A stretch of 64,000 nt of DNA from Candidatus Binatia bacterium. Lineage in GTDB: Bacteria; Desulfobacterota; Binatia; HRBIN30. This document shows positions 11,984 to 55,270 of this stretch, in pieces. Position 1 is the first letter of the stretch. The number at the start of each line of letters is the position of its first letter. A program made the position numbers and the translations under genes. Location of the stretch: positions 1,543,860-1,607,859 of the forward strand of contig BPIR01000001.1 in the NCBI GenBank assembly GCA_026004215.1, in the 5' to 3' direction. The notes beneath the pieces are model-generated. The model was not told the origin of the DNA, did no database searches, and saw only the letters and a program-made list of their open reading frames with translations.

Positions 11984-12004
11984 CGCCGCCTCGCCGGTCC
12001 GCGC

Positions 12005-13852: not shown

Positions 13853-13892
13853 AGGCCTATCCTCCCGCTGATCGAGAAATGCCCCGGCACCG

Positions 13893-28212: not shown

Positions 28213-29091
28213 TTACTGAATTTTGTCCACCCAAGCGCCCAAGTCCCACACGTAATTCATGCCGAGTTTCAAGCCGAAGTCCTCGCTACCCGTGTCGAGC
28301 CCGAACGATGCGCCCAAAAAGAACGCCAGGGGCCCGTCGTGCAGCCGAATCCCCGCAGCGGCACGGGTGCGGTCGTTATCGAATCGGGACCCGGTCAGCC
28401 CAGAAATCTCGCCCAGCAAGCGAATTTGCGCGCCTCCCTGCGCCTCGCTCTTCCAACTCGGGCCCTCCATGGCCACGGCATAGACGAACAAGTCATCTTG
28501 CCCGCCCGGACCGAACCGGTGCCCGAGCATCTGCCCAGGATTGCCGAGCAATGCAATCCCCAGGTTGGTATGCACCCGAACGGCTCCTACGTCCTTGGAG
28601 ATCAATGCCAAGATGTCGAAATCCGTTTCATCCGTGCCCAGACGGTCGTCTTTGTTCGCGTTCGGGAGCTTCGTGCCAAACCGCACCGCAAGCGCAGGCC
28701 AGACGGGATCCTCGGGCCGCACCCGAACTTTGGTGTGCAAGCGCGCGTCACCGGAACCGTATTGCCAGTTGGTTTGCCCTTGCGCGGTTCGTTCGTCGAG
28801 ATAAATCGCCTCGTACTCCGCTTCGATCTCTACCCAGTCCGCCGCGCCGGCCCGAAAACCGATGCGGGGCACCTGCGAGCGATCCTGCCGCCGCAGCGCC
28901 CCCGGCGCCGTGAAAAACGGGAACCGCTCGTTGCGCGCGTAGTCGGCTGCGAGCGTGATCTCGCCCAGACCGTCCCGTAAAATCGCCGCGTCATACGCCG
29001 ACAAAGGCTGCAACGATGCCTGTGGCTGCGAAGCTGCGATCGCAGGTAGCGCCATCGCCAGAACCCCGGCCCACCACCACGTCCGCAGCAT
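28213..29091 (-). CDS. Secreted hypothetical protein (possible outer-membrane beta-barrel)
   Basis: Signal peptide MLRTWWWAGVLAMALPAIAASQP; alternating amphipathic composition. No motif recognised. Confidence 0.45.
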   Translation of the reverse strand: MLRTWWWAGVLAMALPAIAASQPQASLQPLSAYDAAILRDGLGEITLAADYARNERFPFFTAPGALRRQDRSQVPRIGFRAGAADWVEIEAEYEAIYLDERTAQGQTNWQYGSGDARLHTKVRVRPEDPVWPALAVRFGTKLPNANKDDRLGTDETDFDILALISKDVGAVRVHTNLGIALLGNPGQMLGHRFGPGGQDDLFVYAVAMEGPSWKSEAQGGAQIRLLGEISGLTGSRFDNDRTRAAAGIRLHDGPLAFFLGASFGLDTGSEDFGLKLGMNYVWDLGAWVDKIQ

Positions 29092-29174
29092 GCAAACCTC
29101 CTCCACGACCGAAGTCAGTGCCATATTTGGAAGGGGCAAGCAAATTGCAAGGGGCATCTTCGTGTGCTTGCAAC

Positions 29175-31858: not shown

Positions 31859-34093
31859 ATGAAACATTCTCTGGAAATGGAAGGCAAGGCGCCGAGCGGA
31901 CCTCCCGCTGGCAAGAATGGCAATGGGGCCCCGTTGGCGGCCCGTGTGCGGGCGGCGGGTGGCTTGTTATTCGTGGCACTCGCCAGTTTCGCTGTCGTCG
32001 AGGTCGTTGCCCGTCCGGGCGAAAACCCCGGCGTCACCGCGGTGCATCTCCTGGGCCTGGGGATTCTCAGCGCTTTGATGGTTCCCCTGTATCGGAAAAC
32101 TTCCGACACGATACTGCAGGCCGCCACGGTGGCTGCGCTACTGACCTGCGCCTTGGTTAGTGTGGGTGTGGCGGCGCTGACCGCCGACGCCAACTCCTCG
32201 TCCTTTGTGTTCGTGGCGCTGGCCATGGGTAGCGCGGCTCTTCTGCCCTGGGGACCAAAACCCCAGGCCATCTTCGTGGCCTTCCTGGCGGTGTTGTTTC
32301 CTCTCGCCGTTTCTATGGCGGAGGGCGGGGTAAGCGTGTTCCGTTTACGCGAGTACCTGGGGTTGCTGGTGATCCTCGGTGTGTCGGTGTACATCGCTGG
32401 GGAGCTCGAACGTTATCGGCGACAAGCCGAGGCGGAACTCGAACGGCGCCTCGCCCGCGAGCAAGAAATCGATCGGCAGCGCCGTTTTTTGCGGGCCGTC
32501 GTCGACATCAATCCTCACCTGATTTTCGCCAAGGATCGCGATGGACGCTTCACCCTCGTGAACCAGGCAGTGGCCGAGATGTACGGTACAACCGTGCACG
32601 ACTTGGTCGGCAAAACCGACGCAGACTTCAATCCCAACGAAGATGAGATCCGATTTTTCCGGAAAATCGACCTGGAGGTTCTCGACACCGGCGAAGAGCG
32701 GGTGATCGAGGAAGAGCGCATCACCGATGCAGCCGGCAACGTGCATTGGCTGAAAACGATCAAGCGCCCCTTGTTCTCGGAGGATGGCCGCCCCGAGCAA
32801 GTGCTCGGGGTGGCCATGGACATTACCGAACAGCGTGCCTCCCGAATTCGACTGCAAGCAGAGGCGCTCATTGCCTCCACGCTTTCCACGGCGGGCGAGG
32901 AAATCATAACCGCACTGAATTCCCCAGAACTTCCGCAGGCGCTGTGCCGAGTGGCTCGCTGGGCTCTCGGAGGGCATTGGGCGCAACTTTGGACTGTGGA
33001 TGAGTCCACTGGCCGGATCCGCCCGTCGGCTCAAGATCAAGCGCCGCCGGAAGTCTGGGCGGCGCTGCAGGTGGTCGAAGTGGACCAGGCGATGGTGGCT
33101 GAGATTTGGAAGCAAGCGGAGGCGCGCGAAATTACCATCATTACTCGGGAAGACGCGGGCCGGTGGATTCCGCCCGTACTCCTCGGTCTCGCCAAGTCTT
33201 TTTCCGGCGCTGTCGTCGTGCCGCTTTGGCGAGGCAGCGAATTATCGGGGGCCCTCATCGTCGGCCTGCAGCCTGACGCCCTTTCGTTCGTACCTGTTCT
33301 CAAGCGGATCGCGGGTGGACTTTCGCAACTGGCGTCTCTCACGTGGGAAAGTGCGCGCCTGGTCGAACAAGTCGCGCGGGCCAGCCGGCTCAAATCCGAG
33401 TTTATGGCCACGATGTCTCACGAGCTGCGTACCCCCCTCAACGTCATTCTCGGGTACAGTGGGCTCCTGTTGGAAGATGCGCTGGGGGAATTGAGCCCGG
33501 AGCAACGCGAGGCCGTCACCCGGTTACGCGCCAACGCCCTCCAACTCCTCGACCTTGTCAACGCTACGCTTGACGTGACGCGCCTCGAAGCCGGCCGAGT
33601 TCACCTTGACCTGCGACCCGTCTCCATTGCCGAGGTTGTCGCGCAAACCGTGCGGGAGACCGTAGAACAAGTCCAGCCCAACGGAGTCCATGTGTGGAGA
33701 GTTATTCCCCCTACCCTGCCGAAGGTTTCTACGGATCCGGCAAAGCTCAAGGTCATCGTGAAGAACTTGTTTGCGAACGCCCTGAAATTCACCCCCTCCG
33801 GATGGGTGCTGGTGGATGGAGTGCTGGACAACGGGCAATTGATCATCCGTGTCGCCGACACTGGCGTGGGGATTTCGGCACACGATCGCGAGCGAATTTT
33901 CGAACCGTTTCGCCAGTTCAGCCAACCCGTGGATCAGCGCTTCGGTGGAGTCGGCCTGGGATTGTACATCGTCCGCCGCCTGGTGGATGCCTTCGGCGGC
34001 GAGATCACCGTAGATAGCGAGCCGGGTCGCGGCACGCTGTTTACGGTGCGGTTACCCGTGGATCCTCCGAACCGCGCCGCCAGTGCGGCGTGA
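31859..34093 (+). CDS. Membrane sensor histidine kinase with PAS domain (HisKA plus HATPase_c)
   Basis: N-terminal TM helices, a PAS block (VVDINPHLIFAKDRDGRFTLVNQAVAEMYG...), an H-box (MATMSHELRTPLNVILGY) and G-boxes (DTGVGI..., GGVGLGLYIV). Confidence 0.85.
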   Translation: MKHSLEMEGKAPSGPPAGKNGNGAPLAARVRAAGGLLFVALASFAVVEVVARPGENPGVTAVHLLGLGILSALMVPLYRKTSDTILQAATVAALLTCALVSVGVAALTADANSSSFVFVALAMGSAALLPWGPKPQAIFVAFLAVLFPLAVSMAEGGVSVFRLREYLGLLVILGVSVYIAGELERYRRQAEAELERRLAREQEIDRQRRFLRAVVDINPHLIFAKDRDGRFTLVNQAVAEMYGTTVHDLVGKTDADFNPNEDEIRFFRKIDLEVLDTGEERVIEEERITDAAGNVHWLKTIKRPLFSEDGRPEQVLGVAMDITEQRASRIRLQAEALIASTLSTAGEEIITALNSPELPQALCRVARWALGGHWAQLWTVDESTGRIRPSAQDQAPPEVWAALQVVEVDQAMVAEIWKQAEAREITIITREDAGRWIPPVLLGLAKSFSGAVVVPLWRGSELSGALIVGLQPDALSFVPVLKRIAGGLSQLASLTWESARLVEQVARASRLKSEFMATMSHELRTPLNVILGYSGLLLEDALGELSPEQREAVTRLRANALQLLDLVNATLDVTRLEAGRVHLDLRPVSIAEVVAQTVRETVEQVQPNGVHVWRVIPPTLPKVSTDPAKLKVIVKNLFANALKFTPSGWVLVDGVLDNGQLIIRVADTGVGISAHDRERIFEPFRQFSQPVDQRFGGVGLGLYIVRRLVDAFGGEITVDSEPGRGTLFTVRLPVDPPNRAASAA

Positions 34094-34298: not shown

Positions 34299-36326
34299 TT
34301 ACAGATCGTTGTCGTCTTGCAAGTCAATCACCCATGGCAGCGTGTTGTTCGCCATGTTGCCGTCGGGGTTCTGGCCCGACACGGTAATTCTTGCCGTACA
34401 CCGCACCGGCGAGCGGGGAAACACCGAATACACCATTTCTTTGCTGAAGGTGACCGGGATCTCTGCAGTGATGTTGCCGTTACTCGGCATAGCCACCCCA
34501 GAGAATGCGCGGCCAGCCTTCGGTACCAGTGCAGTCTGCACCAAGCCGTCCGGGCAGTCGCCTCGATCCACCGACACCGTGACCGTGTCGGCGGCTGCTC
34601 CGCTGCGGATTTTGACTCTTACGGTTTTTGTCACACCGGCCTTGGCTCTCGGCAGGCGCAGATCCAAGGGCTTGACCTGAGCGAGCGCTAGGCGAGCGGT
34701 TGGTTCGCGTGCGACCATGTCGTTCTCATCGATCACGTCGAGAGCAACGACAACGGCTTCGTTGCCAGGCACTGGGTCGATGTTGCGATCGGCGACAGCT
34801 TCAGCGGCGAATTCCAACTCGCACCGCGCCGGGTCGCTGGAACTCGACGAATCGAACGCACTCGCTTGTAAGCGAAGCCACACCGTGGCCTTTGCTTGCC
34901 CGCCGGGTGGAAGGTCCACCAAGTCCGGTGCGTCGGCAAACATGCCGAAATTCGGAGTGCCAACCGTGCCCGGCGGGCAAGTGCCGTCGCGCGCCACGAG
35001 CCGGAAGCGAGCCCGGTCGCCCCACGTGTCGCCGTGACGCAAGGAGACCGCAAGCGGCATGAACACCTCCGGCTTGCCGCGCCGGATGCGGGCCTTCGCG
35101 CGCGCCGGTGGCACCACGACAGCGTCGTGTAAACTGTCGCTCGCTGGGTAGATAAAGCTCACCGCTGCCAGATCGTCCGCTCGCAGCGCCGCACACCGCC
35201 CGTCGAAGTGCGCGAATGCGAACATCGTGGCGCGATTGTCGCCGGAATGGCCGATGCCGATGGTATGGCCCAGCTCGTGGGTGAGAACTTCCGCCACGTT
35301 GCAGGTATTCCAGAATGGGCACTGTCCCCAGCCGTTGTTGAACAAGATCTTCGCTGAAGTAATCCGCGAAAACGATACGCCGTTGACCGTCGAGGTTACG
35401 GACTGGTCCGAACAGTAACCACCGAGCGCGAGAATGCCGGTGCAAAACCACGGGTCCGAAATGACGTTGTCTGGATCGTCGAAGACGATTTGGGTCGGGC
35501 TCGCACAGTCGAATTTGCCCGGCGCCGTGTCCCCCGCATGGCGCAGCACAATGGTCGCGATGGCAGGATCCGACCACGCCGCCATGGCTGCAGCCACCGC
35601 GGCACTAGTTTGCTGTGGACCCAGTGCGGCGTCGCCACGAGCATCCACCAGGTAATCCACCGGCTCGCCGCGGTCTGCCTCGAACCACCGGCCGGTCCCA
35701 GACATCAACGCAAAAGGCGCCACGTACAGCTCGCCGGCTGCTTCGGGCTCCAATTGCAAGGGCGTTGCCCGCGGAGCGATTCGTCCGGACACGGCAGCGA
35801 GCACAGAGGAACGCAAGTTTTCCCAATCGTACACGGCACGCGCACTGACAGGCTTCAGGGAGCGTCCGTCCCATTCCAACGCGGTGGAGCCGTCCCCTAA
35901 GTCCCGCACTGCGAAGGGACGGCCTCCACCGGACACAATCGAGTACTTCCCCAAAGCTAGACTCGTCGTTGCCCACGTTCCGTTGCTGCGCCGACTCACG
36001 AAGGCCAGCACGTGCTCCCCCGGTCGATACGACGGCGTACCGAAAAACCGCGCCGCTACAGTGTCGGTCTCACCCCCCAACTCGACCAGTTCGAGAACTG
36101 CAGGGGGTGATCCCTTGAGAACCTCCAGCGGCTGAAGCCGAACGGCGGTGGAGACGATTTTCGAGGCAGGGTCGTAGCTGGGATGCGCGCTCTCGACGCG
36201 CGCGACCACGACTGCGTCGGCTTGATGCGCGAGTTGTTGCTCGTTGGCCAGGATAAATGTCGAAGCTCGCACGGCCACCGGCACGGCGCACGAGCACGCG
36301 AAAAGCAGGGATCTGCAAGTCCACAT
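34299..36326 (-). CDS. Secreted zinc metalloprotease (metzincin, HExxHxxGxxH)
   Basis: THELGHTIGIGHS motif, signal peptide MWTCRSLLFACSCAVPVAVRAS, and C-terminal beta-rich extension domains. Confidence 0.7.
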   Translation of the reverse strand: MWTCRSLLFACSCAVPVAVRASTFILANEQQLAHQADAVVVARVESAHPSYDPASKIVSTAVRLQPLEVLKGSPPAVLELVELGGETDTVAARFFGTPSYRPGEHVLAFVSRRSNGTWATTSLALGKYSIVSGGGRPFAVRDLGDGSTALEWDGRSLKPVSARAVYDWENLRSSVLAAVSGRIAPRATPLQLEPEAAGELYVAPFALMSGTGRWFEADRGEPVDYLVDARGDAALGPQQTSAAVAAAMAAWSDPAIATIVLRHAGDTAPGKFDCASPTQIVFDDPDNVISDPWFCTGILALGGYCSDQSVTSTVNGVSFSRITSAKILFNNGWGQCPFWNTCNVAEVLTHELGHTIGIGHSGDNRATMFAFAHFDGRCAALRADDLAAVSFIYPASDSLHDAVVVPPARAKARIRRGKPEVFMPLAVSLRHGDTWGDRARFRLVARDGTCPPGTVGTPNFGMFADAPDLVDLPPGGQAKATVWLRLQASAFDSSSSSDPARCELEFAAEAVADRNIDPVPGNEAVVVALDVIDENDMVAREPTARLALAQVKPLDLRLPRAKAGVTKTVRVKIRSGAAADTVTVSVDRGDCPDGLVQTALVPKAGRAFSGVAMPSNGNITAEIPVTFSKEMVYSVFPRSPVRCTARITVSGQNPDGNMANNTLPWVIDLQDDNDL

Positions 36327-36510
36327 GAATCTTGTCCTCCACGAGGACAAGCTCTGCGACTCGCGTGCCAACAGGTTTTTCGGAAAGCGAAAGGAGTCTG
36401 GAAAAGGCCGGACACGTCATCCAAATGACGAACTCGCAGGAACGCCAAAACGGCCGGCGCGGCTCACAAGAGAATGCCGCAAGTGCTTTGCGCAGTGGCG
36501 TTGAGAGAGC

Positions 36511-37923
36511 TCAACGCCACTGCGCGCCGCCCAGCCGTACCAACTCCGCGTGGATGTCGTACAACGTTCGAGCGACGTCGCGGCGCCGATCGAGGGACCG
36601 AGGAATCCCGCCCGCATTTGCGTAGCGTTCGATGTCCTGCAAACCAGGCACGTCGCGAGCCGTGGCCCCCAGCGCCACACACTCTGGAGGCGCTTCACGG
36701 TCCACCGTGATCACGGGCAGTTGCGGGAAGGGACGCGGATCGTCCCTCTCCAACCGCGACCGGTCGAAGGCATCCAGGAAGATATTGGCGTTGCGGTCGC
36801 GCATCGTCAGCGGAGGAAGACGAAATAGAAATTCTAGGAAAGCCGGGTAGGAGCTGTGTTCATACAAGGTGGACGACACAAAGCCCCTCTTCGCCCAAGG
36901 CGACACCACGAACGCCGGCACCCGAGGTCCGAGGGCCCCGAAACCCTCTTGGGAGCGCTCGTCGGGCACGGTCGGCGGGGGCACGTGGTCGAAAAATCCA
37001 CCGTGTTCGTCGTAGGTGAGAATGAACGCGCTCCGGCGCCACTGGGGGCTCGCACCGAGCGCACGAATCACAGCGGCCACGAAGGCCTGGCCGAGCTGGA
37101 TGTCGTGCGGGGGATGATCGTCGTTGATTCCGAAGCCAGGCTCTACCACGCAGACGGGAGGCAAGGTTCCGGCACGGGCATCTTCGAAAAAGGCCTGGAT
37201 GGGAAGCAACCGCGAGGTTTGCGATCGCAAACTCGCCCACAAGGCCAAGAACGGTAGATCGGTGTAGTAGTACTTCCACTCGATCCCCGCGCTGTTCAGG
37301 ACGTCGTAAATCGTCCGGAACCGAAACCCGGGTGGCGCCGGGAAGTCGTTGTTCTTGCGCCCATCCGATTGTGCCGCGTGGAGGTACATACGATTGGGCC
37401 ATGTCGGGCCGCGGACGGAACAAAACCAGCGCTGGCACAAAACGAACTCATCGGCGAGCGCGTAATAAATGGGTAACTGCTGCCGCTGATAGTACCCCAT
37501 GACTTGATCGCCATGTGCGGGGCCGACTGCCGCCCAGTGTTCGCGCACGAATCCGTCCATCCGCCCGTCGTCCACCTGGCGAAAACTCGCATCCCAGCCG
37601 TGGGGTGGATCCTCCACACATCGGTCGGACATGGGGAACACCCGCACCATGGAGCCATCCGGACGGGGATTGGCAAAGGAGGCCTGCAGGCCATCCACCG
37701 CTCTGCCCTCGTGCAACGAAAGGGACCCCAGGAAGTGGTCGAAGGTGCGATTCTCCATCATCACCAGGACCACGGTGTCTACCTTCAGGTCTTCTGGAGT
37801 CAGGGGGGGCAAGCCACCTCCGCCACCACCTTCTCCGTCGTCTCCGCAGCTACTGAGCCACGGAGCCAATGCCACCGCCCCAGCCGCAGCGCCAATGTGT
37901 TTCAAGGCCTCGCGTCGGGTCAC
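36511..37923 (-). CDS. Phosphoesterase-family (phospholipase C/acid phosphatase-like) lipoprotein, Tat-secreted
   Basis: GTG start gives VTRREALKHIGAAAGAVALAPWLSSCG (twin-arginine plus lipobox). Phosphoesterase block VVLVMMENRTFDHFLG...YDEHGGFFDHV. Confidence 0.75.
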   Translation of the reverse strand: MTRREALKHIGAAAGAVALAPWLSSCGDDGEGGGGGGLPPLTPEDLKVDTVVLVMMENRTFDHFLGSLSLHEGRAVDGLQASFANPRPDGSMVRVFPMSDRCVEDPPHGWDASFRQVDDGRMDGFVREHWAAVGPAHGDQVMGYYQRQQLPIYYALADEFVLCQRWFCSVRGPTWPNRMYLHAAQSDGRKNNDFPAPPGFRFRTIYDVLNSAGIEWKYYYTDLPFLALWASLRSQTSRLLPIQAFFEDARAGTLPPVCVVEPGFGINDDHPPHDIQLGQAFVAAVIRALGASPQWRRSAFILTYDEHGGFFDHVPPPTVPDERSQEGFGALGPRVPAFVVSPWAKRGFVSSTLYEHSSYPAFLEFLFRLPPLTMRDRNANIFLDAFDRSRLERDDPRPFPQLPVITVDREAPPECVALGATARDVPGLQDIERYANAGGIPRSLDRRRDVARTLYDIHAELVRLGGAQWR

Positions 37924-38275
37924 CGAAGCTAGGACCGGCGCGTGTGCCGATTTTCTGCGAGCTCGCTTGTTTCCACGCTCCACTGGATGCCACCTCGACT
38001 GGCGCGCATTGGTGGCGCAAAATTGCTGAACGCGCAATATGTTCCCTGCCCCGAGGCACAAAATTTCTCCGTACTTTAACAGCGTGGCGCCGACGTTCTT
38101 CTCGCGCAAAAAGCGGCGACCAGGCCGTGCGGGCGCGAGGCCGATGGCGCAAACGCTATGCGCCCGATGCGCCCCCAACGACCGCAAGCCTCGTCTCGTC
38201 AGGCTCCCAGGAGCCCGCTGGTCACGCGTTCTTCTTCGGCCCGATGCACGAGAACTCTTGACACTTCACCGAGCT

Positions 38276-38671
38276 TCAGTCACTCGGCCTCGAACCTGGC
38301 TGAAGTTCGAGCCAGCGGGTTCGCTGTGTCGGATCCAGCACACGTAGCGCGTCGCGATCCGCGAGCACCCGTAGGCCTCCGCGCTCCTGCGCGAGCTTGG
38401 CCCACTCACTGCGCTCGCTCACCGTTGCCGCCGCTTCTCGATCCGCCATGCGTCGCGACAGCTCTCGCCACGAGCTCTGCGCCCGTTCGAGCAACAGTTG
38501 CAATTTCGCACGCTGCTCAGCGGAGAGCTGCAACGGCTCCGCCTGTTCCAGGAGAGTCGCAGCGAGCCAGTCTGGCTCTTTTGGCCCCGTTGCATCCCTG
38601 CCGCCGGCGGCGGTCACGCAAACAAGCAGCCACACGCCCAGCGGCGCGGTCCATCGAGCGATTCCCCGCAT
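38276..38671 (-). CDS. Periplasmic Spy/CpxP-family (LTxxQ-like) protein
   Basis: Signal peptide; helical repeats with LSAEQRAKLQLL and LDPTQRTRWLEL resemble the LTxxQ repeats of CpxP and Spy. Confidence 0.55.
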   Translation of the reverse strand: MRGIARWTAPLGVWLLVCVTAAGGRDATGPKEPDWLAATLLEQAEPLQLSAEQRAKLQLLLERAQSSWRELSRRMADREAAATVSERSEWAKLAQERGGLRVLADRDALRVLDPTQRTRWLELQPGSRPSD

Positions 38672-38690
38672 CGGCCCGGAGCCCGAGCGC

Positions 38691-39302
38691 TCAGTGCTTC
38701 CCTGGGGCCAACGGCACTCCCTTGCGGGTCGAAATGATGTAGGCCTCCAGCGCCTTCATCTTCTCGTCGTTCTCGGCCAAGGGCGGGCCCTCCATGGGAT
38801 TTTCGATGCACCAGTTGATCATGTCGCGCAGCAAGGCGATGCGTTTGAGCTGGGTTTGGAACTTCGGGTACGTTTCTGGATGAGTATTGCTGGCGTCCGG
38901 ATGGCACATGTCGCACGAGATGCCGTTGGTTCCCAACTCAGGGGAGTGGAACAACTTATAGCCCTCGTCAATCGTACGTTTGAGTTCGGCCTCCCAGACA
39001 CGCATTTCTCTTTCCGTATGGGGGGCGCCTCCGTGGGCCAGTTGGGTTTTCTGCTCGTACTGGCGCATGAGCTCCCCGGCCACCTCGCGCGCTTGTTGCT
39101 GGGAAAGGCGCTCGCCCGGAGCCACGCCCGGCACGACCACGCTGGTTTCGCCGTCGCACAGCCCGACGACCTTGCTTTTTCCATCGGGGGGAGGTGGCAA
39201 GGCGTGTTTCAACGGCTCGCGGGCTCCTGCCCGCAATGCCAGCACTGCTGCACCCGACGCGGCCAACGCCGCCATCCAAACACCTTTAGCTCGCAACATC
39301 AT
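38691..39302 (-). CDS. Mono-haem c-type cytochrome (SoxX-like)
   Basis: Signal peptide MMLRAKGVWMAALAASGAAVLA and a single CDMCH haem-binding motif. Confidence 0.6.
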   Translation of the reverse strand: MMLRAKGVWMAALAASGAAVLALRAGAREPLKHALPPPPDGKSKVVGLCDGETSVVVPGVAPGERLSQQQAREVAGELMRQYEQKTQLAHGGAPHTEREMRVWEAELKRTIDEGYKLFHSPELGTNGISCDMCHPDASNTHPETYPKFQTQLKRIALLRDMINWCIENPMEGPPLAENDEKMKALEAYIISTRKGVPLAPGKH

Positions 39303-39328
39303 GGTCTCACCTCCACGTTCCCGAGCGG

Positions 39329-40483
39329 TCAGTACGAGGGCCAATCCACCCGGCCCTGAAAGGCCTTCGCCAGCTCCGCCATCCCTTGTTTGCCGCGGCG
39401 AACGTGATCGAAGGTCACAGTCATCGGGTTACGATCCCACAACACGTAATGTTTATCGGCCTGGCCATCGGCGCGCATGGAGACGCTACCCCAGCCGCAA
39501 CCGTCGAACTGATTGAACGGGTCGGCGCGCACCATTTGTACGGTCAGTTCGGGAATTCCCTGGGGCGCATACGGCCAAGGCCAGGCCGTCGACAGCACGC
39601 CGTGAAAGGTGATGTTGCGCAGCCGGTGTGTGAGCACTTGGTGTGTGTGGGCGTGGATCACAGTCACCGTTTCGAAGGGGGCGAGGAGCTTGTGGACCTC
39701 TTCGGCGTCTTCGGTCCAAAAGTTCCACGGCCGGTAATACTTGTAGAGGGGAGAGTGGGAGAAAATCACGATCGGCGTCTTTTTATTCACTTTGGCCAGA
39801 TCTTGGCGGAGCCAATCGCGCTGTTCTTCTCCCACCATAAACGGCCGGCCGTTGGGGTTATCCAATTGCGCCATGGCCAACATGCGCTCCATGGGGGTCA
39901 TTTTGGGCTCGGTCCAGTAGTCCTCCACGATGACCGAGTTGAGCACGATAAAGTGGACGCCCTTGTGATCGAAGGAGTACGTGGGTTCGCCAAACATCTC
40001 GCGCCACTTCTCGCCCATGTCGAGATACCAATCGTGCTCGCCGACCATCATTTTGACCGGGGCCTTGAGTTGATCGAGGATCTGCTTGCCGATCGTGAGT
40101 TCCTCGGCCTTGCCGAGTTGGGCCAAGTCGCCGCCGAACAGGACAAAGTCCGGTTGTGGATCGAGCGCGTTGACGTCGTCTACCGCCTTCTGGCAAGCTC
40201 GCACGAACCTGTGATTCAGGCCTTTATCCAGGATGTGCGTGTCGGAAACGTAGGCAAAGGTAAATTTCGGCTCGGCCTCTTTGGCTTCCGCGACTCGGAT
40301 GAGCTGAAACGAGTGCGGCGGGAAGCCTTTCCAAAAGGCTGTAGCCACCGCCGCCGCTTTGGCGGCCGTCTTGAAAAAATCGCGCCGGCTGAGCTTCGGC
40401 AACTCTTGAAAAAAGCGCTCGCGCTCCGCCAGGTACTCTTGTTTCTTGCGTTCCAAAGGCAGAGTGTATTTTGGCATTGCCAT
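39329..40483 (-). CDS. Tat-exported calcineurin-like metallophosphoesterase
   Basis: Tat motif SRRDFFKTAAKAAAV. MPE motifs (AYVSDTHI, GGDL, ...NS..., GEHDWY, VIHAHTH). The ATG at 40483 has a GGAGGG RBS. Confidence 0.8.
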   Translation of the reverse strand: MAMPKYTLPLERKKQEYLAERERFFQELPKLSRRDFFKTAAKAAAVATAFWKGFPPHSFQLIRVAEAKEAEPKFTFAYVSDTHILDKGLNHRFVRACQKAVDDVNALDPQPDFVLFGGDLAQLGKAEELTIGKQILDQLKAPVKMMVGEHDWYLDMGEKWREMFGEPTYSFDHKGVHFIVLNSVIVEDYWTEPKMTPMERMLAMAQLDNPNGRPFMVGEEQRDWLRQDLAKVNKKTPIVIFSHSPLYKYYRPWNFWTEDAEEVHKLLAPFETVTVIHAHTHQVLTHRLRNITFHGVLSTAWPWPYAPQGIPELTVQMVRADPFNQFDGCGWGSVSMRADGQADKHYVLWDRNPMTVTFDHVRRGKQGMAELAKAFQGRVDWPSY

Positions 40484-40506
40484 CCCTCCTTTTGCCGCAG
40501 TTCTCC

Positions 40507-41646
40507 TTACGGGGCTGGCGCGGCCACCAGTTCCCCGGCGCGCGTTTTGCGCGACAGTTCTTTCAACTCCTCCCAGTCGAAATTCTTCCCGCCCGATTCG
40601 TCCGTCAGCGACTTCATGAACTCGATAATGTCGGCGATTTCCTCCTTGGTCAGATTGAGGGGGCGCATCCCGCCATCGAGGTTCGGATTCGGTTCGCCGC
40701 CGCGGTTGTAAAAATCCATGACTTCTTCGAGCGTTTTGAGGCTGCCGTCGTGCATGTAGGGCGCGGTGAGAGCGACATTCCGCAGGCCGGACGTCTTGAA
40801 TGCCCCAATGTCTTTGGGCTCGCGCGTCACAATCCACCGCCCCAGCGCCTCTACCCCCGGCTTGTGGGCAAGGGCGGACTCCGCCTCTTTGTTGCCCTTT
40901 GCCTGTATGGCTTGCGCTTCGCGCGCCAGCGCTTCGAAGTTCCCCTTCATGGCCACACCGATGTTGTGAAACTTGTTGTCCGTAAAAAACGGAAACGAGG
41001 CGTTGAACTCGTGGCAGGTCACGCAGCGGGCTTTGCCCAAGAACAGTTGGAAACCCCGTTTCGCCGCGTCGCTCAAGGCTGTTTTTTCGCCTGCGAGGAA
41101 GCGATCGAACGGCGAGGAAAATGGCGCCAGGGTGCGCTCGAACGTGGCAATGGCTTGAACGATGCGGTCGATGGTAATTTGTGGCGACCCGAAGGCTTGC
41201 TGAAAGAGAGGCGGGTACTCGGGCTGGCTTGCCACAGCCTTGACTACGGCATCGTGGGAAGGCTGGCCCATCTCTACCGGGTTGATCAGCGGCTGCTTGG
41301 CCTGCTCCTCCAGTGTGGGAGCGCGGCCGTCCCAGAACTGCACTTCACTGAATCCAGTGTACAGCACCGTCGGCGAGTTGCGTGCCCCGGCCTGCCCGCG
41401 AATACCCACGGCCACAGCCTTTCCGTCCGCAAACCCGTGCAACGGGTCGTGACACGTGGCGCAAGACACGGTTCCGTCGGCGGACAGGCGTTTGTCGAAG
41501 TACAGCTTCTTCCCCAGCGCAACCTTCTCCGCGGTCAGGGGATTGTCTGGCGGAATCAACGGTTCCAACACGCCCTTCGGCAAATATAGGGCGAATGCCC
41601 CCAGCACCGTGGCCAATGAGCGCTTTGTCGCTGCCTTAAATCCCAT
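40507..41646 (-). CDS. Di-haem cytochrome c peroxidase
   Basis: Two CxxCH motifs (CATCHD, CVTCHE) and the conserved RNVALTAPYMHDGSLKTLEEV block; signal peptide. Confidence 0.9.
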   Translation of the reverse strand: MGFKAATKRSLATVLGAFALYLPKGVLEPLIPPDNPLTAEKVALGKKLYFDKRLSADGTVSCATCHDPLHGFADGKAVAVGIRGQAGARNSPTVLYTGFSEVQFWDGRAPTLEEQAKQPLINPVEMGQPSHDAVVKAVASQPEYPPLFQQAFGSPQITIDRIVQAIATFERTLAPFSSPFDRFLAGEKTALSDAAKRGFQLFLGKARCVTCHEFNASFPFFTDNKFHNIGVAMKGNFEALAREAQAIQAKGNKEAESALAHKPGVEALGRWIVTREPKDIGAFKTSGLRNVALTAPYMHDGSLKTLEEVMDFYNRGGEPNPNLDGGMRPLNLTKEEIADIIEFMKSLTDESGGKNFDWEELKELSRKTRAGELVAAPAP

Positions 41647-42460
41647 CGTTTCCCCTCCCCTCCGTGGCACCCAGCCTTCCAGGAAAATCCGCCAGACGAT
41701 CGCTGCGAACACCACTGTGACAGGTGCCGCACGCTTGCGCGCCGTCGTGCGTTCCTCGGCTGACCAGCACATACGACAGCGGCCCGTGGTTCCAGGAGAT
41801 CAACTTCTGGTTTCCGCGGGCATACCTGAGAAAACCCGCTGCGTCCGCTTCGCGGCGCGGCCGTTTTGGCTCCGACTGCCTCGCTGCAATGAGGAGTAAG
41901 GCCGGACCATTCTCCGACCGGTACACCACCACACCGAATTGATCGCCCCCATCCTTCACAACTTTGACCCCAACGGGTGTGAAACCGTGCGGCGCCCGAA
42001 GCGCGCCCGGCGGATAAAATGCGAGCTGCCGAGCCAGCCACTCATCGAGGGCCGAAGCCTCGTCCGCCCGCGCCGATAGGACCAAGCGGCCGCGCACCCA
42101 CTCGTCGTACAGTTCCGCCGCCACTGCGACGCGGCGAGGCAAACTGGCCTCCGTACGAGTCAACTGAGTGGCAAACCACAGTAACAACCCGGCAGCCACC
42201 ACCGCGGTTGTGGCCGTCACCACCGGCCATAAACGACGCGGCCGCGCCAGTACGGCCCGGATCCGTCCTTCGAGTGTGGTAGGACACGGCGCCTGCGGGT
42301 AACATTGTCGCACCAGATCGGCGGACCACCGTTCCAGCTCCAAACTCCGCTTGCAACGTTCACAAGCTTGAATGTGTTCCTCGAGTTCGAGCGCGCGCTC
42401 GACACCGACTTCGTGATCCACATAGGCAGAAATGTATTTCCGGAAGTCTCTACACGTCAT
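41636..42460 (-). CDS. Anti-sigma factor (zf-HC2, single TM, periplasmic domain)
   Basis: [18 protein letters not shown]...HIQACERCKRSLE zinc-finger anti-sigma motif followed by a TM helix. The start overlaps the sigma gene stop by 4 nt. Confidence 0.65.
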   Translation of the reverse strand: MTCRDFRKYISAYVDHEVGVERALELEEHIQACERCKRSLELERWSADLVRQCYPQAPCPTTLEGRIRAVLARPRRLWPVVTATTAVVAAGLLLWFATQLTRTEASLPRRVAVAAELYDEWVRGRLVLSARADEASALDEWLARQLAFYPPGALRAPHGFTPVGVKVVKDGGDQFGVVVYRSENGPALLLIAARQSEPKRPRREADAAGFLRYARGNQKLISWNHGPLSYVLVSRGTHDGAQACGTCHSGVRSDRLADFPGRLGATEGRGNDGI

Positions 42461-43020
42461 TTTTGCTCGTTTCCTAGTTTGCGGGCTCGTGCAGGGGTCG
42501 CCTCTGCGAGCTGCCCGAGGAGCTGCGCGCGCAAAAGCGCGCGAGCGCGCGCCAGCCGGGACATCACGGTCCCCAAGGGGCACCCTAGAATCTGGGCCAC
42601 CTCTTTATAATTGAACCCTTCCACGTCGCGCAGGTACAGGGGCGAACGATAAGGCTCCGGTAAACTGGCCACCGCCTGCTGCACGCGTTGCGCCCACTCC
42701 CGCTCCAGGATTTGGCTTTCCGGGCCGGGAACGGGCTCTCTCGCGGTCCAGCCCGGAATCGTCCCCACACGTTCTTCCTGACGGGCACGTTGCCGCACGC
42801 CATCGATCCAAGTGTTGCGCAAGACCACAAACAACCAAGTGCGCACGGTTGCACGGTCCGCGATCTCTTGCCAGCGTTCGATGGCCTTGAGCACGGTGGT
42901 CTGCACCAAGTCATCGGCCTCACCGGGCCCAGCCAAGGCCAGGGCATAGTTATAAAGCGCATGAAGGTGCGGCAGAATTTTGCGCTCCAGCTCCTTTTCT
43001 TTTGCTCGCCGAAACACCAC
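42457..43020 (-). CDS. ECF-type RNA polymerase sigma factor
   Basis: Sigma-70 region 2 ([14 protein letters not shown]) and region 4 ([37 protein letters not shown]). Confidence 0.85.
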
Positions 43021-43046
43021 GTCACCCCAATGAGGAAGGCACCCTT

Positions 43047-43076
43047 ACTACGAATCACCCCGCTCGTTTATTCCCT
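43047..43076 (-). promoter_or_regulatory. Candidate autoregulated ECF-type promoter (GGAAT-N17-CGTA)
   Basis: The minus strand reads GGGAATAAACGAGCGGGGTGATTCGTAGTA about 30 nt upstream of the sigma ATG. It fits the AAC/CGT class of ECF promoters. Judged by eye only. Confidence 0.25.
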
Positions 43077-43223
43077 GCCCCGCCAATTTTCCCCGGCCGT
43101 CCCCGAGGCTCCGCCGGTGGGGCGGCACGGCCTAGCCCCTCCGGCATAACGTGTTGCGGCTTTGCTCTTGTCAAACTGTTCAATTTCATAGTAGACACGT
43201 GCGCCCAGGGAGAGGAGGGAACC

Positions 43224-46200
43224 GTGGGTCGCATTTTGCAATGCATCGGGCTCGGGGTGATTTCTGCGCTGGCCGCACTGGTCGGGGGAGCGTTGCCAGC
43301 GATGGCTGGTTCGTACACGCTTTTCGAGAGCGGCCCGGTGCGCCCGCTCGCATTATCCCCCGACGGCAGCAAGCTTTTCGCGGCCAATATTCCCGACGGC
43401 CGCTTGGAGGTGTTTTCCATTGGAAGCAATGGCTCGCTGGCGCATATAGAATCGGTGCCCGTGGGCTTGGAGCCTGTTGCGCTGGCTGCCCGCAGCAACA
43501 CCGAGGTGTGGGTCGTAAATCACCTGTCGGACAGCGTCAGCATCGTGGACCTATCGAGCTCCCCGGCACGCGTCGTACGCACATTGCTGGTGGGGGATGA
43601 GCCGCGCGACATTGTGTTCGCGGGTCCCGGCAAAAATCGGGCATTCATCACCTGTGCGCACCGTGGCCAGAACAACCCCAATGACCCGCAACTCACGACT
43701 GCGGGCGTCGGCCGAGCCGATGTGTGGGTGTTCGACGCGAACAATCTTGGCAACACCCTCGGGGGCACGCCGCTCACCATTCTGACCTTGTTCGGCGACA
43801 CGCCGCGGGCGCTCGCCGCCACACCCGACGGCAGTCGGGTTTATGCAGCCGTGTTCCACAGCGGAAACCAAACCACCACGATCAACGAGGGGCTGATCTG
43901 CAACGACTCCAACAAAACGGACACGGTGGTTCCCGGTCCGTGCACGATCTCGGGGGTAACCGTGCCGGGCGGCCTGCCCTTGCCGACTGCGGATCACACC
44001 GGCGCTGCCGGACCGGATGTCGGTTTGATTGTCAAGTGGAACGGATCCTACTGGGCGGACAAGGCTTGCGCTGGCGGTTCGAAATACGGCTGGAGCTGCA
44101 AGACGGACGCAGATTGCCCCGGCAGTGTGTGCGGCCGGAATTGGAGTCCCGCGGTTAAGTTCAACTTACCGGACAAGGACGTATTCGTGATCGACGCCAT
44201 GGCAAATCCTCCGGTCCAACTTGCTGGCGGTTCCGGATACTACACGGGGGTCGGAACGATCTTGTTCAACATGGCCGTCAACCCGGTGAGCGGAAAGGTT
44301 TATGTGAGCAACTTCGAGTCTCGCAACGAATTCCGCTTCGAAGGGCCTGGCATTTATGCCGCGCAGTTCGGGGGCACCACCGTGCAGGGCCACTTGGCAG
44401 AGTCGCGCATCACCGTACTGTCCGGCAGCAACGTGCTCCCGCGGCATCTCAACAAACACATTGACTACGACCAGCGTCCCGCTCCGGCCGGCGTGAAAGA
44501 CCATAGCTTGGCCACGCCGTTGGACATGGTCGTGACCAGCGACGGGCAAACGCTGTACGTCGCCGCATTCGGGTCGAGTAAAGTAGGCGTCTTCAGCACT
44601 GCTGCGCTGGAAAACGATACGTTTGTGCCCAACAACGCCAATTACATCAGCGTGAGCGGTGGAGGTCCGGCTGGCCTGGCGCTTCACGAAGGGCTCCAAC
44701 GGCTCTACGTGCTGACACGTTTCGACAACGGCATTGCCGTGGTCGACACCACGACACGAACGGAAGTGGACCACGTTTCTTTGTACAACCCGGAGCCGGC
44801 CAGCGTCGTCAACGGGCGGCGTTTCTTGTACGACGCCTTTTACACTTCCAGCAATGGCGAGGCGGCATGCGCGAGTTGCCACATCTTTGGCGACCTCGAT
44901 AGTTTAGCTTGGGATCTCGGCAACCCGGATGACGAAACGCAGACGAATCCGCTGCCGGTGAAATTGTCCTTTGCCATCGGTTCGGGTACCTTTCGAGACT
45001 TCCACCCAATGAAGGGCCCCATGACCACGCAAACACTGCGGGGGCTAGCCAACCACGGTGCGATGCATTGGCGGGGCGATCGCAACGGAGGTAGTTCGCA
45101 ACCGTTCAGTGCGGACCTCGCCTTCAAAGCCTTCAATGTAGCTTTCCCTGGTTTGCTCGGGCGAACGAGCCAGCTCACGGCGGCGGAAATGCAAGCGTTC
45201 ACCGACTTCATTTTGCAGGTGAAGCTGCCTCCCAATCCAATCCGAAACTTGGACAATTCTTTGACTGCATCGCAACAAAACGGCCGCAATTTCTTTTTCG
45301 GGCCGCGCCGGGCCGACGGCCTCAACTTCGGCACCGACGGTGCCGACAACGCTTTGGGCCATACTTGCAATGGCTGTCACGTCACCGACCGTTCGCAAGG
45401 GTTTTTCGGTACGGACGGAAAAGCCAGCTTCGAGAACGAGCCGCAGGTGATCAAAATCGCCCACCTGCGCAACTTGTACCAAAAGGTCGGGATGTTCGGC
45501 ATGGCCGCCGTCTCGTTCTTCAACGCCGGCGACAATAACCACAAAGGAGATCAAATTCGCGGCTTCGGCTTTTTGCACGACGGGAGCGTGGACACCCTGT
45601 TTCGGTTCCTCAACGCCACCGTATTCAACGACCAAAACGGAGTAGGGTTCAATGGTGGAGACTCGCAGCGTCGCGACGTCGAACAGTTCCTGCTCGCGTT
45701 CGACACTGATCTCTTCCCCATCGTCGGACAACAAGTCACGCTCACGAGCACGAATGCGTCCCAAGTCAACCCGCGCATTGACTTGTTGATCCAGCGTGCG
45801 GCGGCAGGCGAGACGGATCTGGTCGTGAAAGGCCGATACAACGGCCAACTGCGCGGCTGGTACCGGACGGCTGCTGGCTTGTTCCAGCCGGATCGCGCCG
45901 GGGAAGCGCCGTGGACCGACAGTGCTCTCCGCTCCATCGCAGCCACCTCCGGTCAAGAGTTGACCTACACCGCAGTTCCGCTGGGCTCCGCAATTCGCTT
46001 GGGCGTGGATCGCGACGAAGACACGTTTTTCGATCGGGACGAACTCGATGCGGGTTCCGACCCGGCCGATCCGAACAGTACCCCAGGATCTGCGCCGACA
46101 CCGACCCCGACAGGTACACCGACTCCGACTCCCACCCGTAGCTCGACCCCGACGCGGACTCGCACGCCGACCAGTACGCCTTCTTCGACACCGACCCCCA

Positions 46201-47048
46201 CGTTCACGCCTACGTTTACGCCGACATTTTCACCGGTTCCCACCCACACGCCCACCGATACTCCCACCAACACCGCAACCCCGACCCGTACACTCACACC
46301 CACGCACACGATCACGCCCGGCGGGCCGACGCTGACACCGACTCATACTGTACCTCCAACCGCGACTTATACGGATTCTCCGACTCCAACGCTGACCCCC
46401 ACGCACACGGCGACCAACTCCCCGACGACGACCTTCACGCCCACGTGGACCCCAACGGACACGCCCACGCCCGAGCCGACCCTCACCCCGACGGCAATGC
46501 CCGATGTATTTTGCAGCGGAACGAGTGTGTTGGGCTCGCCGAGGCTGAAGGTCACCAAACTGCTCACTGCGCCCGGTGACGACGGTCTCACCTTGAGCGG
46601 CTCCTGGATGCTCTCTCCGAGTACGCCCCCGCCGAACCCAGTAGCCGAGGGGATTCGTTTCGCGCTGTACGACTCCTTCGGGAACTTGATCTTGCAGCGA
46701 ATTGTGCCTGGAGGTGCAGCGCTGTCACGTTCCGGCCCGGGCTGGACTCTCAGCACGGACGGGCACGTAGCCAAGTACACCGATGCGCTGGCCGTGCAGG
46801 GTGACATCAAAAAGGCGGTCGTCACCAGCTCACGGCGTACCCCGGGACTGTTCACCGTGAGAATTACCGGGCGACTCGGCAGCTTCGCCGTGAGCCCGAG
46901 TCAGTTGCCGTTGAGGATGACAGTGGTTCTCGGCAACCAGGCACGAGCGGCGATGGGGCAGTGCGCAAGTTACAGCTTTGGTCCGAGCGGTGGCGTCCGC
47001 CCGCGCTGCGACTTCTCGGCTACAGGTAACACGCTGGTGTGTAGATAA
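43224..47048 (+). CDS. Giant secreted protein: YVTN-type beta-propeller, di-haem cytochrome c peroxidase/MauG-like domain, ~170-aa PT-rich linker, unknown C-terminal domain
   Basis: GTG at 43224 with a GGAGGG RBS and a signal peptide. Propeller repeats ([11 protein letters not shown]..., [12 protein letters not shown]...). Haem motifs CASCH and CNGCH plus the CCP block LRNLYQKVG...[14 protein letters not shown]. Then a long TPTPT... linker. Confidence 0.8.
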
Positions 47049-48425: not shown

Positions 48426-49433
48426 CTACCCTAGCCACCGGCTCCAAATGCCATCCAGCAACACCCCACACAAGAATAGTCCCCCGAAGCGCCGCGTGTG
48501 CTGAAATGCAAAAGCAGAGTACCACAATGGCCACACATTGGGGGGAAATCCTGCAGGGGGGCTAGCCGGCCGCGGTTCGCGAAACACAAAGAACACGAGG
48601 CGGAACCAAGACAGTGACCCCAAGCTCAGCAACAAAGGCCAATGAAACGCCCGGGAGGCCACCAAGTACAGGGTCACGGCATACGCCGCGCAGCACAGCC
48701 CGATGACGGCGTAGCGGGCGTTCCGCTCCCCGAGAATAACCGGCAACGTTCGAATGTTTTTCGCACGGTCGGCTTCGATCTTGTCGATGTGCTTTCCAAA
48801 CAGCACCGTGGTGGCCATAAGTGCCACGGGCAGGCTAGCCCACAGGACGTGGGGAGCGAGGGTCCCCGTGACAACGTAGTACCCTCCTCCCACCATGAGA
48901 GGTCCCCAAACGACCAATACCGCGACTTCACCGAGGCCGATGTATTTAAGAGGCCACGTATAGAACAGCACAAAAAACGCCCCGATCGCGGTCAGCCACA
49001 AAACAGCTTCGCCCCGCCAAAACACCAATGTCAGTCCGGCAACCAGTGCGAGTGCGCCGGTCACACCGACGTACTGCAGCATTTGACCGGTAGTCAGCAG
49101 CCCGTGTTCGAGCGGCTGGGGTCCGTACTGAGCGCGAAAATAGTTATCTCGGTCCACCCCTTTCCAGTGATCCGTGATGTCGTTGACGAGGTTGTTGGTG
49201 GCGTGCGCAAGCAGCAATCCAACGGTTAGCAGCAGCCAGCCACCGACGTCGAAGGCATGATCGCGCCAAGCCAGCAGACCAGCCAGCGCCGCAGACACAA
49301 AGGTCATGACTAAAACTGCAGAACGCGTGGCAATGAGCCAGCGCGAAACCACATCGAGCTGCTCCCATTCTTCACGAGAGATGCGAGGAATGACCCGCAC
49401 CGCCCGCGCCCACATAGCAACGTTGACCATCAT
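48426..49433 (-). CDS. UbiA-family aromatic prenyltransferase (MenA-like)
   Basis: NNLVNDITDHWKGVDRDN (NDxxDxxxD) motif, polytopic, 335 aa. Sits immediately upstream of the P450, which suggests an operon. Confidence 0.8.
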   Translation of the reverse strand: MMVNVAMWARAVRVIPRISREEWEQLDVVSRWLIATRSAVLVMTFVSAALAGLLAWRDHAFDVGGWLLLTVGLLLAHATNNLVNDITDHWKGVDRDNYFRAQYGPQPLEHGLLTTGQMLQYVGVTGALALVAGLTLVFWRGEAVLWLTAIGAFFVLFYTWPLKYIGLGEVAVLVVWGPLMVGGGYYVVTGTLAPHVLWASLPVALMATTVLFGKHIDKIEADRAKNIRTLPVILGERNARYAVIGLCCAAYAVTLYLVASRAFHWPLLLSLGSLSWFRLVFFVFREPRPASPPAGFPPNVWPLWYSAFAFQHTRRFGGLFLCGVLLDGIWSRWLG

Positions 49434-49543: not shown

Positions 49544-49617
49544 GGTCGCATAGCTCAGCTGGTTAGAGCGCCTGCCTCACATGCAGGAGGTCCGTGGTTC
49601 GAGTCCACGTGCGACCA
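49544..49617 (+). tRNA. tRNA-Val (anticodon CAC)
   Basis: A cloverleaf folds by hand: acceptor GGTCGCA/TGCGACC, D-arm GCTC/GAGC, anticodon stem CCTGC/GCAGG with loop CTCACAT, T-arm CGTGG-TTCGAGT-CCACG. CCA is not encoded. Confidence 0.9.
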
Positions 49618-55187: not shown

Positions 55188-55270
55188 CCGGTGCCGCTGT
55201 GTACCGCCGGTCGGCTGATCGTGCAAATTCGCCGGTCAAAGGGTATCCTCGCGCCGAGCGAGGGATCGGA

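Follow-up and report, generated by a model that had tools for sequence, protein, structure and literature searches.

A predicted haem-c anti-sigma factor and a cross-phylum MauG-type cassette in an ECF sigma factor operon of a Binatia bacterium

This study concerns an operon of six genes in a 64,000-nt stretch of the genome of a Candidatus Binatia bacterium (contig BPIR01000001.1, positions 1,543,860 to 1,607,859; hereafter the window), in which an extracytoplasmic function (ECF) sigma factor and its membrane anti-sigma factor precede genes for a di-haem enzyme, an exported metallophosphoesterase and a cytochrome c. Genes were mapped by open reading frame (ORF) listing and by Pfam and NCBIfam models, and all features discussed lie at the coordinates given. 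The operon is encoded on the minus strand. Its first gene (42457-43020, −) specifies an ECF sigma factor of 187 aa with Pfam domains Sigma70_r2 and Sigma70_r4_2. The second (41636-42460, −) encodes a zf-HC2 membrane anti-sigma factor of 274 aa, in which a single transmembrane helix joins a cytoplasmic ZAS domain to a periplasmic alpha/beta domain, with a haem-c motif at the C-terminus. It is followed by a di-haem enzyme of 379 aa (40507-41646, −; CCP_MauG, E = 6.7e-61), which is of the MauG/MbnH type as judged from its motifs, a metallophosphoesterase of 382 aa with the twin-arginine (Tat) export signal SRRDFFK (39329-40477, −; Metallophos, E = 2e-16), a SoxA/TsdA-type mono-haem cytochrome c of 203 aa with one CxxCH (38691-39302, −; PF21342, E = 5.3e-13) and a small exported protein of 131 aa that weakly resembles LTXXQ (CpxP/Spy) proteins (38276-38671, −). 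The sigma and anti-sigma genes share a 4-nt ATGA overlap, the next junction is an 11-nt overlap, and the remaining gaps are 29, 26 and 19 nt. On the other strand lies a giant gene for a 1274-aa propeller and di-haem protein (43224-47048, +), which has a GTG start after a GGAGG ribosome-binding site; its start codon and that of the sigma gene are divergent, with 203 bp between them. A sequence-only reading of the window had described the same layout, with six co-directional genes, their overlaps and gaps, and a giant gene about 200 bp away on the opposite strand; ORF listing together with the Pfam and NCBIfam models recovered every gene that it had described. Database entries that match at 100% identity are KatS3mg077_1355 for the anti-sigma protein and P0271 for the phosphoesterase. 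The closest relatives are bacterium HR30 (L001), a metagenome-assembled genome labelled Myxococcales (L003) and a metagenome contig (L084).

The core of this operon is the order di-haem enzyme, Tat-exported phosphoesterase and cytochrome c, which is kept across distant phyla. A metagenome search with the phosphoesterase returned 80 loci, which were then searched by tblastn, and the three genes stand in this order on one strand in essentially every locus with enough flank, over GC contents from 0.37 to 0.75 and at identities of 61-94% for the phosphoesterase, 50-96% for the di-haem enzyme and 33-87% for the cytochrome. Of these genes the phosphoesterase is the best conserved, and it always stands beside the di-haem gene. 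It has 5,515 homologues at E<=1e-20, and those with names come from Vicinamibacteria, Blastocatellia, Brocadiales, Polyangia and cultured Myxococcus species; named homologues of the anti-sigma factor include Kryptonia. Contig L163 carries all three cassette genes too, and its phosphoesterase falls into one cluster, at 90% identity, with the phosphoesterases of cultured Myxococcus species. The sixth gene is a lineage-specific accessory, present only in the six closest loci. A CpxP/Spy-type chaperone had been proposed for it; the 131-aa ORF is there, and the family label rests on a sub-threshold match to Pfam LTXXQ (E = 0.11; 13.7 bits against a cut-off of 24.3) and two LxxxQ-like motifs seen by eye.

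The di-haem enzyme had been described as a canonical periplasmic peroxidase. It is a di-haem CCP_MauG protein, with haem motifs CATCH (residues 62-66) and CVTCH (208-212) and a bridging Trp105 (QFW105DGR), all of which are conserved among its orthologues; the word canonical does not hold. Its best matches in the PDB are MbnH (6e1c, 2.6e-55), bacterial cytochrome c peroxidases (bCCPs, ~1e-53) and MauG (~1e-38). In pairwise alignments, Tyr313 falls on the axial Met of the canonical peroxidases 1iqc, 1nml and 3o5c, aligns without gaps to residue 294 of MauG and matches the equivalent Tyr of MbnH, and among 52 orthologues at least 97% retain the axial Tyr and likewise the bridging Trp. Ligation of the E haem by His-Tyr as opposed to His-Met separates MauG-type enzymes, which use H2O2 for oxidising a partner protein, from canonical peroxidases (PMC11892367). 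Because Tyr replaces the axial Met, the enzyme is not, by its predicted ligands, a canonical bCCP, and its two CxxCH motifs, bridging Trp and predicted His-Tyr E haem place it with MauG, MbnH and BthA. A second likeness lies in gene order. The cassette di-haem gene obligately adjoins the gene of one partner protein, as in the pairs MauG/preMADH, MbnH/MbnP and BthA/PhosA, and the BthA gene always adjoins a putative phosphatase that its discoverers proposed as the BthA substrate (PMC6405878), so that the partner is a putative phosphatase in both cases. Compared to these pairings, the partners in the cassette are different, namely a Tat-exported phosphoesterase with a GEHD motif and a cytochrome with a predicted His/Cys haem, and no methylamine dehydrogenase (MADH), mau, mbn or MbnP genes were found beside the cassette, where the neighbours are the phosphoesterase and the cytochrome.

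Both partners have conserved positions for predicted ligands. Among 74 orthologues of the phosphoesterase, at least 97% retain the motifs RR.F, SDxH, GGD, GEHD, SHS, HxHTHQ, WNFWT and WPWPY, and the five metal-binding motifs of the superfamily (SDTH, GGD, GEHD, SHS and HAHTH) are invariant. Motif III (residues 146-149) reads GEHD in place of GNHD, an Asn to Glu change present in 74 of the 74 orthologues, and to our knowledge no other metallophosphoesterase carries it. The Glu could add a carboxylate to the ligands of the second metal site, which might favour a higher-valent metal. The cytochrome has its haem motif CDMCH at residues 130-134 and a predicted axial Cys165 in MINWC, and scores 49 bits against PF21342 (cut-off 27). 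When it is aligned to the haem-1 domain of SoxA (1h31), the His of CxxCH falls on chain residue 80 and Cys165 on chain residue 114, the His/Cys ligands of SoxA haem 1; among 27 orthologues, at least 97% retain Cys165. Since these positions coincide, the cytochrome is predicted to carry a low-potential His/Cys haem. Its likeness to the SoxA and TsdA cytochromes thus consists of the PF21342 domain and the conserved position of the axial Cys; compared to SoxA and SoxAX, it is built of one haem domain only, lacks a SoxX partner and sox genes, and scores far under the SoxA cut-off.

The cassette might instead serve plain periplasmic detoxification of peroxide, in which the cytochrome would donate electrons to the di-haem enzyme, the phosphoesterase and the LTXXQ-like protein would be separate effectors, and no protein would be modified. 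Of the alternatives considered here this one survives best, and we regard it as a real but distinctly less probable explanation. The di-haem enzyme scores nearly as well against bCCPs as against MbnH, PerR-like regulators stand beside the cassette in some lineages, and BthA, a MauG-type enzyme, turns over H2O2 (PMC6405878). However, the Tyr that takes the place of the axial Met lowers the potential of the E haem and marks enzymes that use H2O2 as an oxidant (PMC11892367). In addition, a His/Cys cytochrome would be an unusual donor for a peroxidase, and a separate effector is not what the strict conservation of the phosphoesterase and its constant place beside the di-haem gene suggest.

Control of the cassette can be followed through a promoter motif. 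An alignment of the intergenic regions of three relatives revealed GGGAATAAA-N14-CGT(A/T)G just 5′ of the sigma gene; in the window this ECF-type, putatively autoregulatory promoter reads GGGAATAAA-N14-CGTAG (43048-43075, −) and lies about 25 nt 5′ of the sigma start codon. Even when 3 mismatches are allowed, the motif GGAATAAA-N14-CGT occurs only once in the 64 kb of the window. It stands 5′ of the sigma gene in all six loci in which sigma factor and cassette are co-directional (the window, L001, L003, L084, L090 and L091). The ECF pair adjoins the cassette in 14 loci, in co-directional or divergent orientation, and in 10 of 10 loci with a divergent sigma gene the form GGAATAAA-N12-14-(G/T)TGT(T/C) is found on the same strand as the di-haem gene, ~90-230 nt 5′ of it, while a related motif also faces the sigma gene. 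The motif occurs 5′ of the di-haem gene in 8 further loci where no sigma gene was detected in the flank. Eight loci have a Fur-family regulator beside the cassette, with PerR as its best match and then Irr, both under the cut-off, and the ECF motif is absent from all six of the scored loci with such a PerR-like neighbour. In other lineages, a PerR-like Fur-family regulator takes the place of the ECF pair. By its sequence and position, the motif is the predicted promoter that drives the sigma operon and the cassette. The gene overlaps, the promoter and the PerR-like replacement together support the proposal, made in the sequence-only reading, that the sigma and anti-sigma operon forms one envelope unit of a redox or oxidant type, and we regard the operon as a self-contained unit of stress-type regulation, widespread among bacteria and previously uncharacterised.

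Several look-alike sites were rejected. The sequence GGGAATAAACG at 25092-25125 (+), which equals the ECF promoter in its first 11 nt, lies antisense inside an 819-aa ORF (24113-26572) with a weak spermine-synthase match, and this look-alike −35 box probably arose by chance. Another site, a relaxed match at 43594-43618, falls inside the coding sequence of the giant gene, and the relaxed matches in the window are all intragenic. A generic scan of the window for sigma-70 promoters and terminators returned counts close to the shuffled expectation.

Two further arrangements were noted among the cassette loci. In four Kryptonia-like loci of low GC (L094, L103, L104 and L119), a tRNA-like stretch (GGAGCCGACGGGATTCGAACCC...), recognised by eye, lies between the sigma gene and the di-haem gene on the strand opposite to the latter, and the cassette promoter is thus located between this stretch and the di-haem gene. 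On contig L163 (2743-4016, −), the cassette is preceded by two divergent genes of 228 and 196 aa that are negative in Pfam and have no ECF motif; their N-termini resemble export or lipoprotein signals by eye, and they possibly represent a third mode of cassette regulation or partnership.

The sigma factor conforms to the ECF group, as it has sigma-2 and sigma-4 domains only and its gene overlaps the anti-sigma gene by the 4 nt mentioned above. It scores 89 bits against the NCBIfam model sigma70-ECF (TIGR02937; cut-off 42.9); the nearest named models, PRK12533, PRK12511 and SigH_actino, are all under their cut-offs. Its partner carries the N-terminal ZAS motif HxxxCxxC as HIQACERC (residues 29-36; 42353-42376, −) in its anti-sigma domain, and H30, C34 and C37 do not vary in either of two alignments. 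At the other end of the protein, in the periplasmic domain, lies CGTCH (residues 244-248; 41717-41731, −; translation checked), a predicted site of covalent haem-c attachment. The ZAS motif, a single transmembrane helix and a periplasmic domain that ends in CxxCH are common to all 15 cassette-linked anti-sigma factors, and this CxxCH is invariant among them at identities of only 19-46%. A word-indexed database search with an anti-sigma profile returned at least 38 proteins; CxxCH is present in 31 of the 31 that belong to the family and absent from the 7 that are weak generic ZAS matches. The topology of the AlphaFold2 (AF2) model places CxxCH outside the membrane. A His on the first periplasmic helix is nearly invariant in these anti-sigma factors (Tyr118 in the window protein) and may, as a matter of speculation, be a sixth ligand of the haem. 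No Pfam family covers the periplasmic domain, a haem-c anti-sigma factor is not described in the literature that was searched, and searches on MauG with metallophosphoesterase and on ECF with peroxidase and phosphoesterase returned nothing relevant. Because every cassette-linked anti-sigma factor ends in the invariant periplasmic CxxCH, these proteins appear to carry their own covalently bound c-type haem as a sensor.

Alternatively, the C-terminal CxxCH may act as a periplasmic thiol-disulfide or metal-binding switch and not as a haem site, as CxxC redox switches occur in many envelope proteins and the AF2 model has low confidence around the motif (pLDDT, the predicted local distance difference test score, ~50-79). 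We consider this improbable. The His that directly follows the second Cys does not vary among 46 sequences with an identity of otherwise ~20%, which is the signature of haem c rather than of a CxxC switch; furthermore, the motif is predicted to lie in the periplasm, the compartment in which haem is attached, and the regulated genes themselves encode c-type haem proteins.

Compared to characterised sigma and anti-sigma pairs, the window pair combines familiar and unfamiliar features. First, it shares the HxxxCxxC domain with SigR-RsrA and SigH-RshA; the RsrA model is the best NCBIfam match of the window anti-sigma factor, and SigH_actino is among the top models for the sigma factor. The consensus of SigR and SigH promoters is GGAAT-N18-GTT, and the window promoter, read as GGAAT-N18-GT(T/A), has the same form. 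However, RsrA and RshA are soluble cytoplasmic proteins, whereas the window anti-sigma factor spans the membrane with a 170-residue periplasmic domain ending in CxxCH, and the SigR and SigH regulons contain thioredoxin-type genes, whereas the window unit contains periplasmic haem and metal enzymes. Second, the protein is a single-pass anti-sigma factor as in SigmaE-RseA-RseB and AlgU-MucA-MucB, and its N-terminal domain matches RseA, RsiW and RslA. In those systems the sensor is a separate protein and none has a haem-c motif, whereas in the window protein the sensor module is fused to the anti-sigma factor.

These observations are best accommodated by an autoregulated ECF switch with a haem-c anti-sigma factor that drives a MauG-type cassette and leaves the giant gene independent, a reading to which we assign a probability of roughly 0.55. 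In such a switch, the single-pass ZAS anti-sigma factor would hold the sigma factor, and its periplasmic domain would end in a covalently attached c-type haem. Oxidation of this haem, or binding of a ligand to it, would release the sigma factor, which would then transcribe its own operon, including the cassette, from GGAATAAA-N14-(C/T)GT. The di-haem enzyme would use H2O2 to oxidise its partner phosphoesterase at a residue or at the metal site, and the cytochrome would be the redox partner that shuttles electrons. The phosphoesterase is proposed as the substrate by analogy with MauG/preMADH, MbnH/MbnP and BthA/PhosA. A more ambitious version, which we offer only tentatively and hold to be clearly less probable, is that an undescribed family of haem-c anti-sigma factors uses a cross-phylum promoter to control a MauG-type enzyme with a dedicated Tat-exported phosphoesterase substrate, in which the enzyme would install a new protein-derived cofactor or switch the redox state of the di-metal site.

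Several points weigh against the proposed switch. We infer haem attachment to the anti-sigma factor, the nature of the signal and the role of the phosphoesterase as substrate, and the CxxCH at the end of that factor could instead bind a metal or form a disulfide. Against neither the MauG model (TIGR03791, 255.6 against 443.85) nor the MbnH model (TIGR04039, 253.8 against 362.85) does the di-haem enzyme reach the curated cut-off, and it is only distantly related to BthA (2.4e-20). The relationship between BthA and PhosA is itself unproven, and simple H2O2 detoxification is possible given the turnover of H2O2 by BthA. In addition, the promoter motif is defined by sequence comparison, and the scan for it in the source genome covered the 64-kb window.

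The sequence-only reading had gone further and suggested that the ECF pair senses peroxide in the envelope and controls the divergent giant protein as a surface-tethered peroxidase. In favour of this are the 203 bp between the two divergent start codons and the haem proteins encoded by both units, and the arrangement is kept in L001, L003 and L084. The linkage was examined by tblastn of the six operon proteins against 82 loci with giant homologues, each with 10-kb flanks. Operon genes were found near a giant homologue only in L001 and L003, and in none of the 80 other genomes, whose giant homologues are 53-67% identical, was any operon gene present within 10 kb. Adjacency is confined to the window and its near-identical relatives L001, L003 and L084; in these the whole region is syntenic, including genes for an M10 protease, a PLC-type phosphoesterase, a P450 and UbiA in the flanks, and because the entire region is shared their arrangement is uninformative. 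The next-nearest giant homologue sits among unrelated genes. Clustering of neighbours over 80 loci yielded no conserved neighbour for the giant family: the top genuine cluster, a LuxR/MalT-like regulator, covered 9 myxobacterial loci, and most of the others were spurious high-GC ORFs. No ECF motif occurs upstream of the giant gene, even at 3 mismatches, and a motif shared by the two units was what the proposed link itself had called for. The giant gene has instead a candidate element TTGTCA-N17-GTAGAC (43169-43200, +) with a sigma-70-like −35 box, which differs from the ECF motif and is conserved in the window, L001 and L003 as TTGnCA-N17-GTAGAC/GTAAGC. A paralogue of the giant gene (P0081; KatS3mg077_0350) elsewhere on the same contig also speaks against a dedicated link. 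Control of the giant protein by the operon is therefore very unlikely. The region consists of two unrelated units, and the giant gene is independent, with its own candidate promoter region; of the overall proposal, the redox-type ECF regulon stands and the membership of the giant protein falls.

The weakest of the alternatives, a Sox-like periplasmic oxidation of sulfur with the phosphoesterase acting as SoxB and the cytochrome as SoxA, has the SoxA/TsdA domain and axial Cys of the cytochrome in its favour, as well as the Tat signal of the phosphoesterase (SoxB is a Tat-exported di-manganese hydrolase of the metallophosphoesterase superfamily), but is scarcely credible given that the phosphoesterase has no SoxB match among the NCBIfam models, where its nearest models are cyclic-nucleotide phosphodiesterases, that no SoxX-, SoxY-, SoxZ- or SoxB-like partner is found among the conserved neighbours in 80 loci, and that the cytochrome reaches 39.5 bits against a cut-off of 110 for thiosulf_SoxA (TIGR04484).

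The giant protein is of interest in its own right. It comprises a propeller (residues 28-520), a di-haem domain (520-940), a Pro/Thr linker (~955-1090) and a C-terminal domain that contains Cys (~1092-1274). In Pfam only the lactonase-type propeller is matched; in NCBIfam and the PDB there are weak but consistent matches to hydrazine synthase (HZS), to the beta subunit in the N-terminal part and to the gamma subunit in the haem part. The haem domain alone matches HZS-gamma best (7.9e-6) and then MbnH, with CCP_MauG only below threshold. The 49 homologues compared are invariant at both CxxCH motifs, at the Trp of MHWRGDR, which occupies the bridging-Trp position of CCP and MauG proteins, and at the HDG motif. 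Loss of the second haem site, which the sequence-only reading had named as fatal to its view of the protein, is thus not seen. With HZS-gamma the protein shares CASCH..G...L.WDLG and HDG..TL....N.TV, and with the Scalindua beta-gamma fusion it shares the domain order of a beta-type propeller followed by a gamma-type di-haem domain. It differs from them in several respects. First, the position of gamma-His144 is occupied by Trp (PMC12758564). Second, gamma-Cys165, which makes the third thioether bond, has no equivalent, as no Cys able to form it is conserved between the two CxxCH motifs in the 49 homologues. Third, the protein adds the Pro/Thr linker and the C-terminal domain, for which there is no Pfam match and which tblastn finds only in a few Binatia homologues; domain scans detected no known sorting domain in the protein that would support its proposed tethering to the surface. 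Fourth, no HZS-alpha-like gene is among the conserved neighbours of the giant family, the flanks of the window itself not having been searched with an HZS-alpha model. Finally, the family occurs in aerobic or facultative lineages such as Binatia, Myxococcota and Acidobacteriota.

The fusion of a propeller with a CCP-like domain had been called unusual, a view that the size of the family does not bear out. A word-indexed search returned more than 7,900 proteins, and clusters at 50% identity of the giant type number 6,617 at E<=1e-3 and 1,569 at E<=1e-30. Homologues 53-67% identical over ~930 residues are found in Binatia, Sorangium, Polyangium, Myxococcus, Corallococcus, Acidobacteriota and Gammaproteobacteria. 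A 2025 paper noted that fused beta-gamma homologues with Trp for gamma-His144 are highly prevalent in environmental bacteria (PMC12758564). By its sequence, the giant protein is best described as a predicted secreted propeller and di-haem protein that resembles HZS beta-gamma and belongs to a large uncharacterised family. Its HR30 orthologue (L001, 10001-13828) bears the GenBank name 'Anti-sigma-I factor RsgI2', which the sequence does not support and which is apparently an annotation artefact of the Pro/Thr-rich linker.

Other genes of the window were recorded as follows. A DsbD-type thiol:disulfide interchange protein with DsbD_N, DsbD_TM and thioredoxin domains is encoded ~8 kb from the operon (29016-30941, +); such a protein is the kind of reductant supply used for cytochrome c maturation. 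Beyond the downstream end of the operon lie genes for a PAS histidine kinase (31859-34093, +), a Peptidase_M10 protein of 690 aa (34299-36371, −; matrixin-like, HELGHTIGIGH) and, immediately downstream, a PLC-type Phosphoesterase-family protein (36511-38187, −); these three are in synteny with the operon in HR30 as well. Convergent to the giant gene are genes for a cytochrome P450 (47141-48415, −) and a UbiA prenyltransferase (48426-49433, −), followed by tRNA-Val (CAC) at 49544-49617 (+). The window also contains two sets of hydantoinase/oxoprolinase genes, an A and B pair at 9929-13936 (−) and a second B at 53562-55226 (−), a 916-aa teneurin-TTR-like protein (1079-3829) and a 966-aa Laminin_G_3 protein (15698-18598).

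Compared to what had been read from the sequence before, the new elements are a cassette that crosses phyla, the predicted MauG-type and His/Cys chemistry of its products, and an anti-sigma factor with a conserved haem-c motif. The giant protein, for its part, confirms the abundance of HZS beta-gamma-like fusions outside anammox bacteria. The cassette would bring the pairings between MauG-type enzymes and another protein to four; it is widely distributed and would be the second in which the partner is a phosphoesterase, which strengthens the unproven idea of a BthA/PhosA relationship, and its presence in cultured Myxococcus species makes it genetically testable. ECF sigma and anti-sigma pairs are among the commonest signalling devices of bacteria, and for most of them the input signal is unknown; a haem c within an anti-sigma factor, if true, would provide a directly testable mechanism for sensing periplasmic oxidants, gases or redox state.

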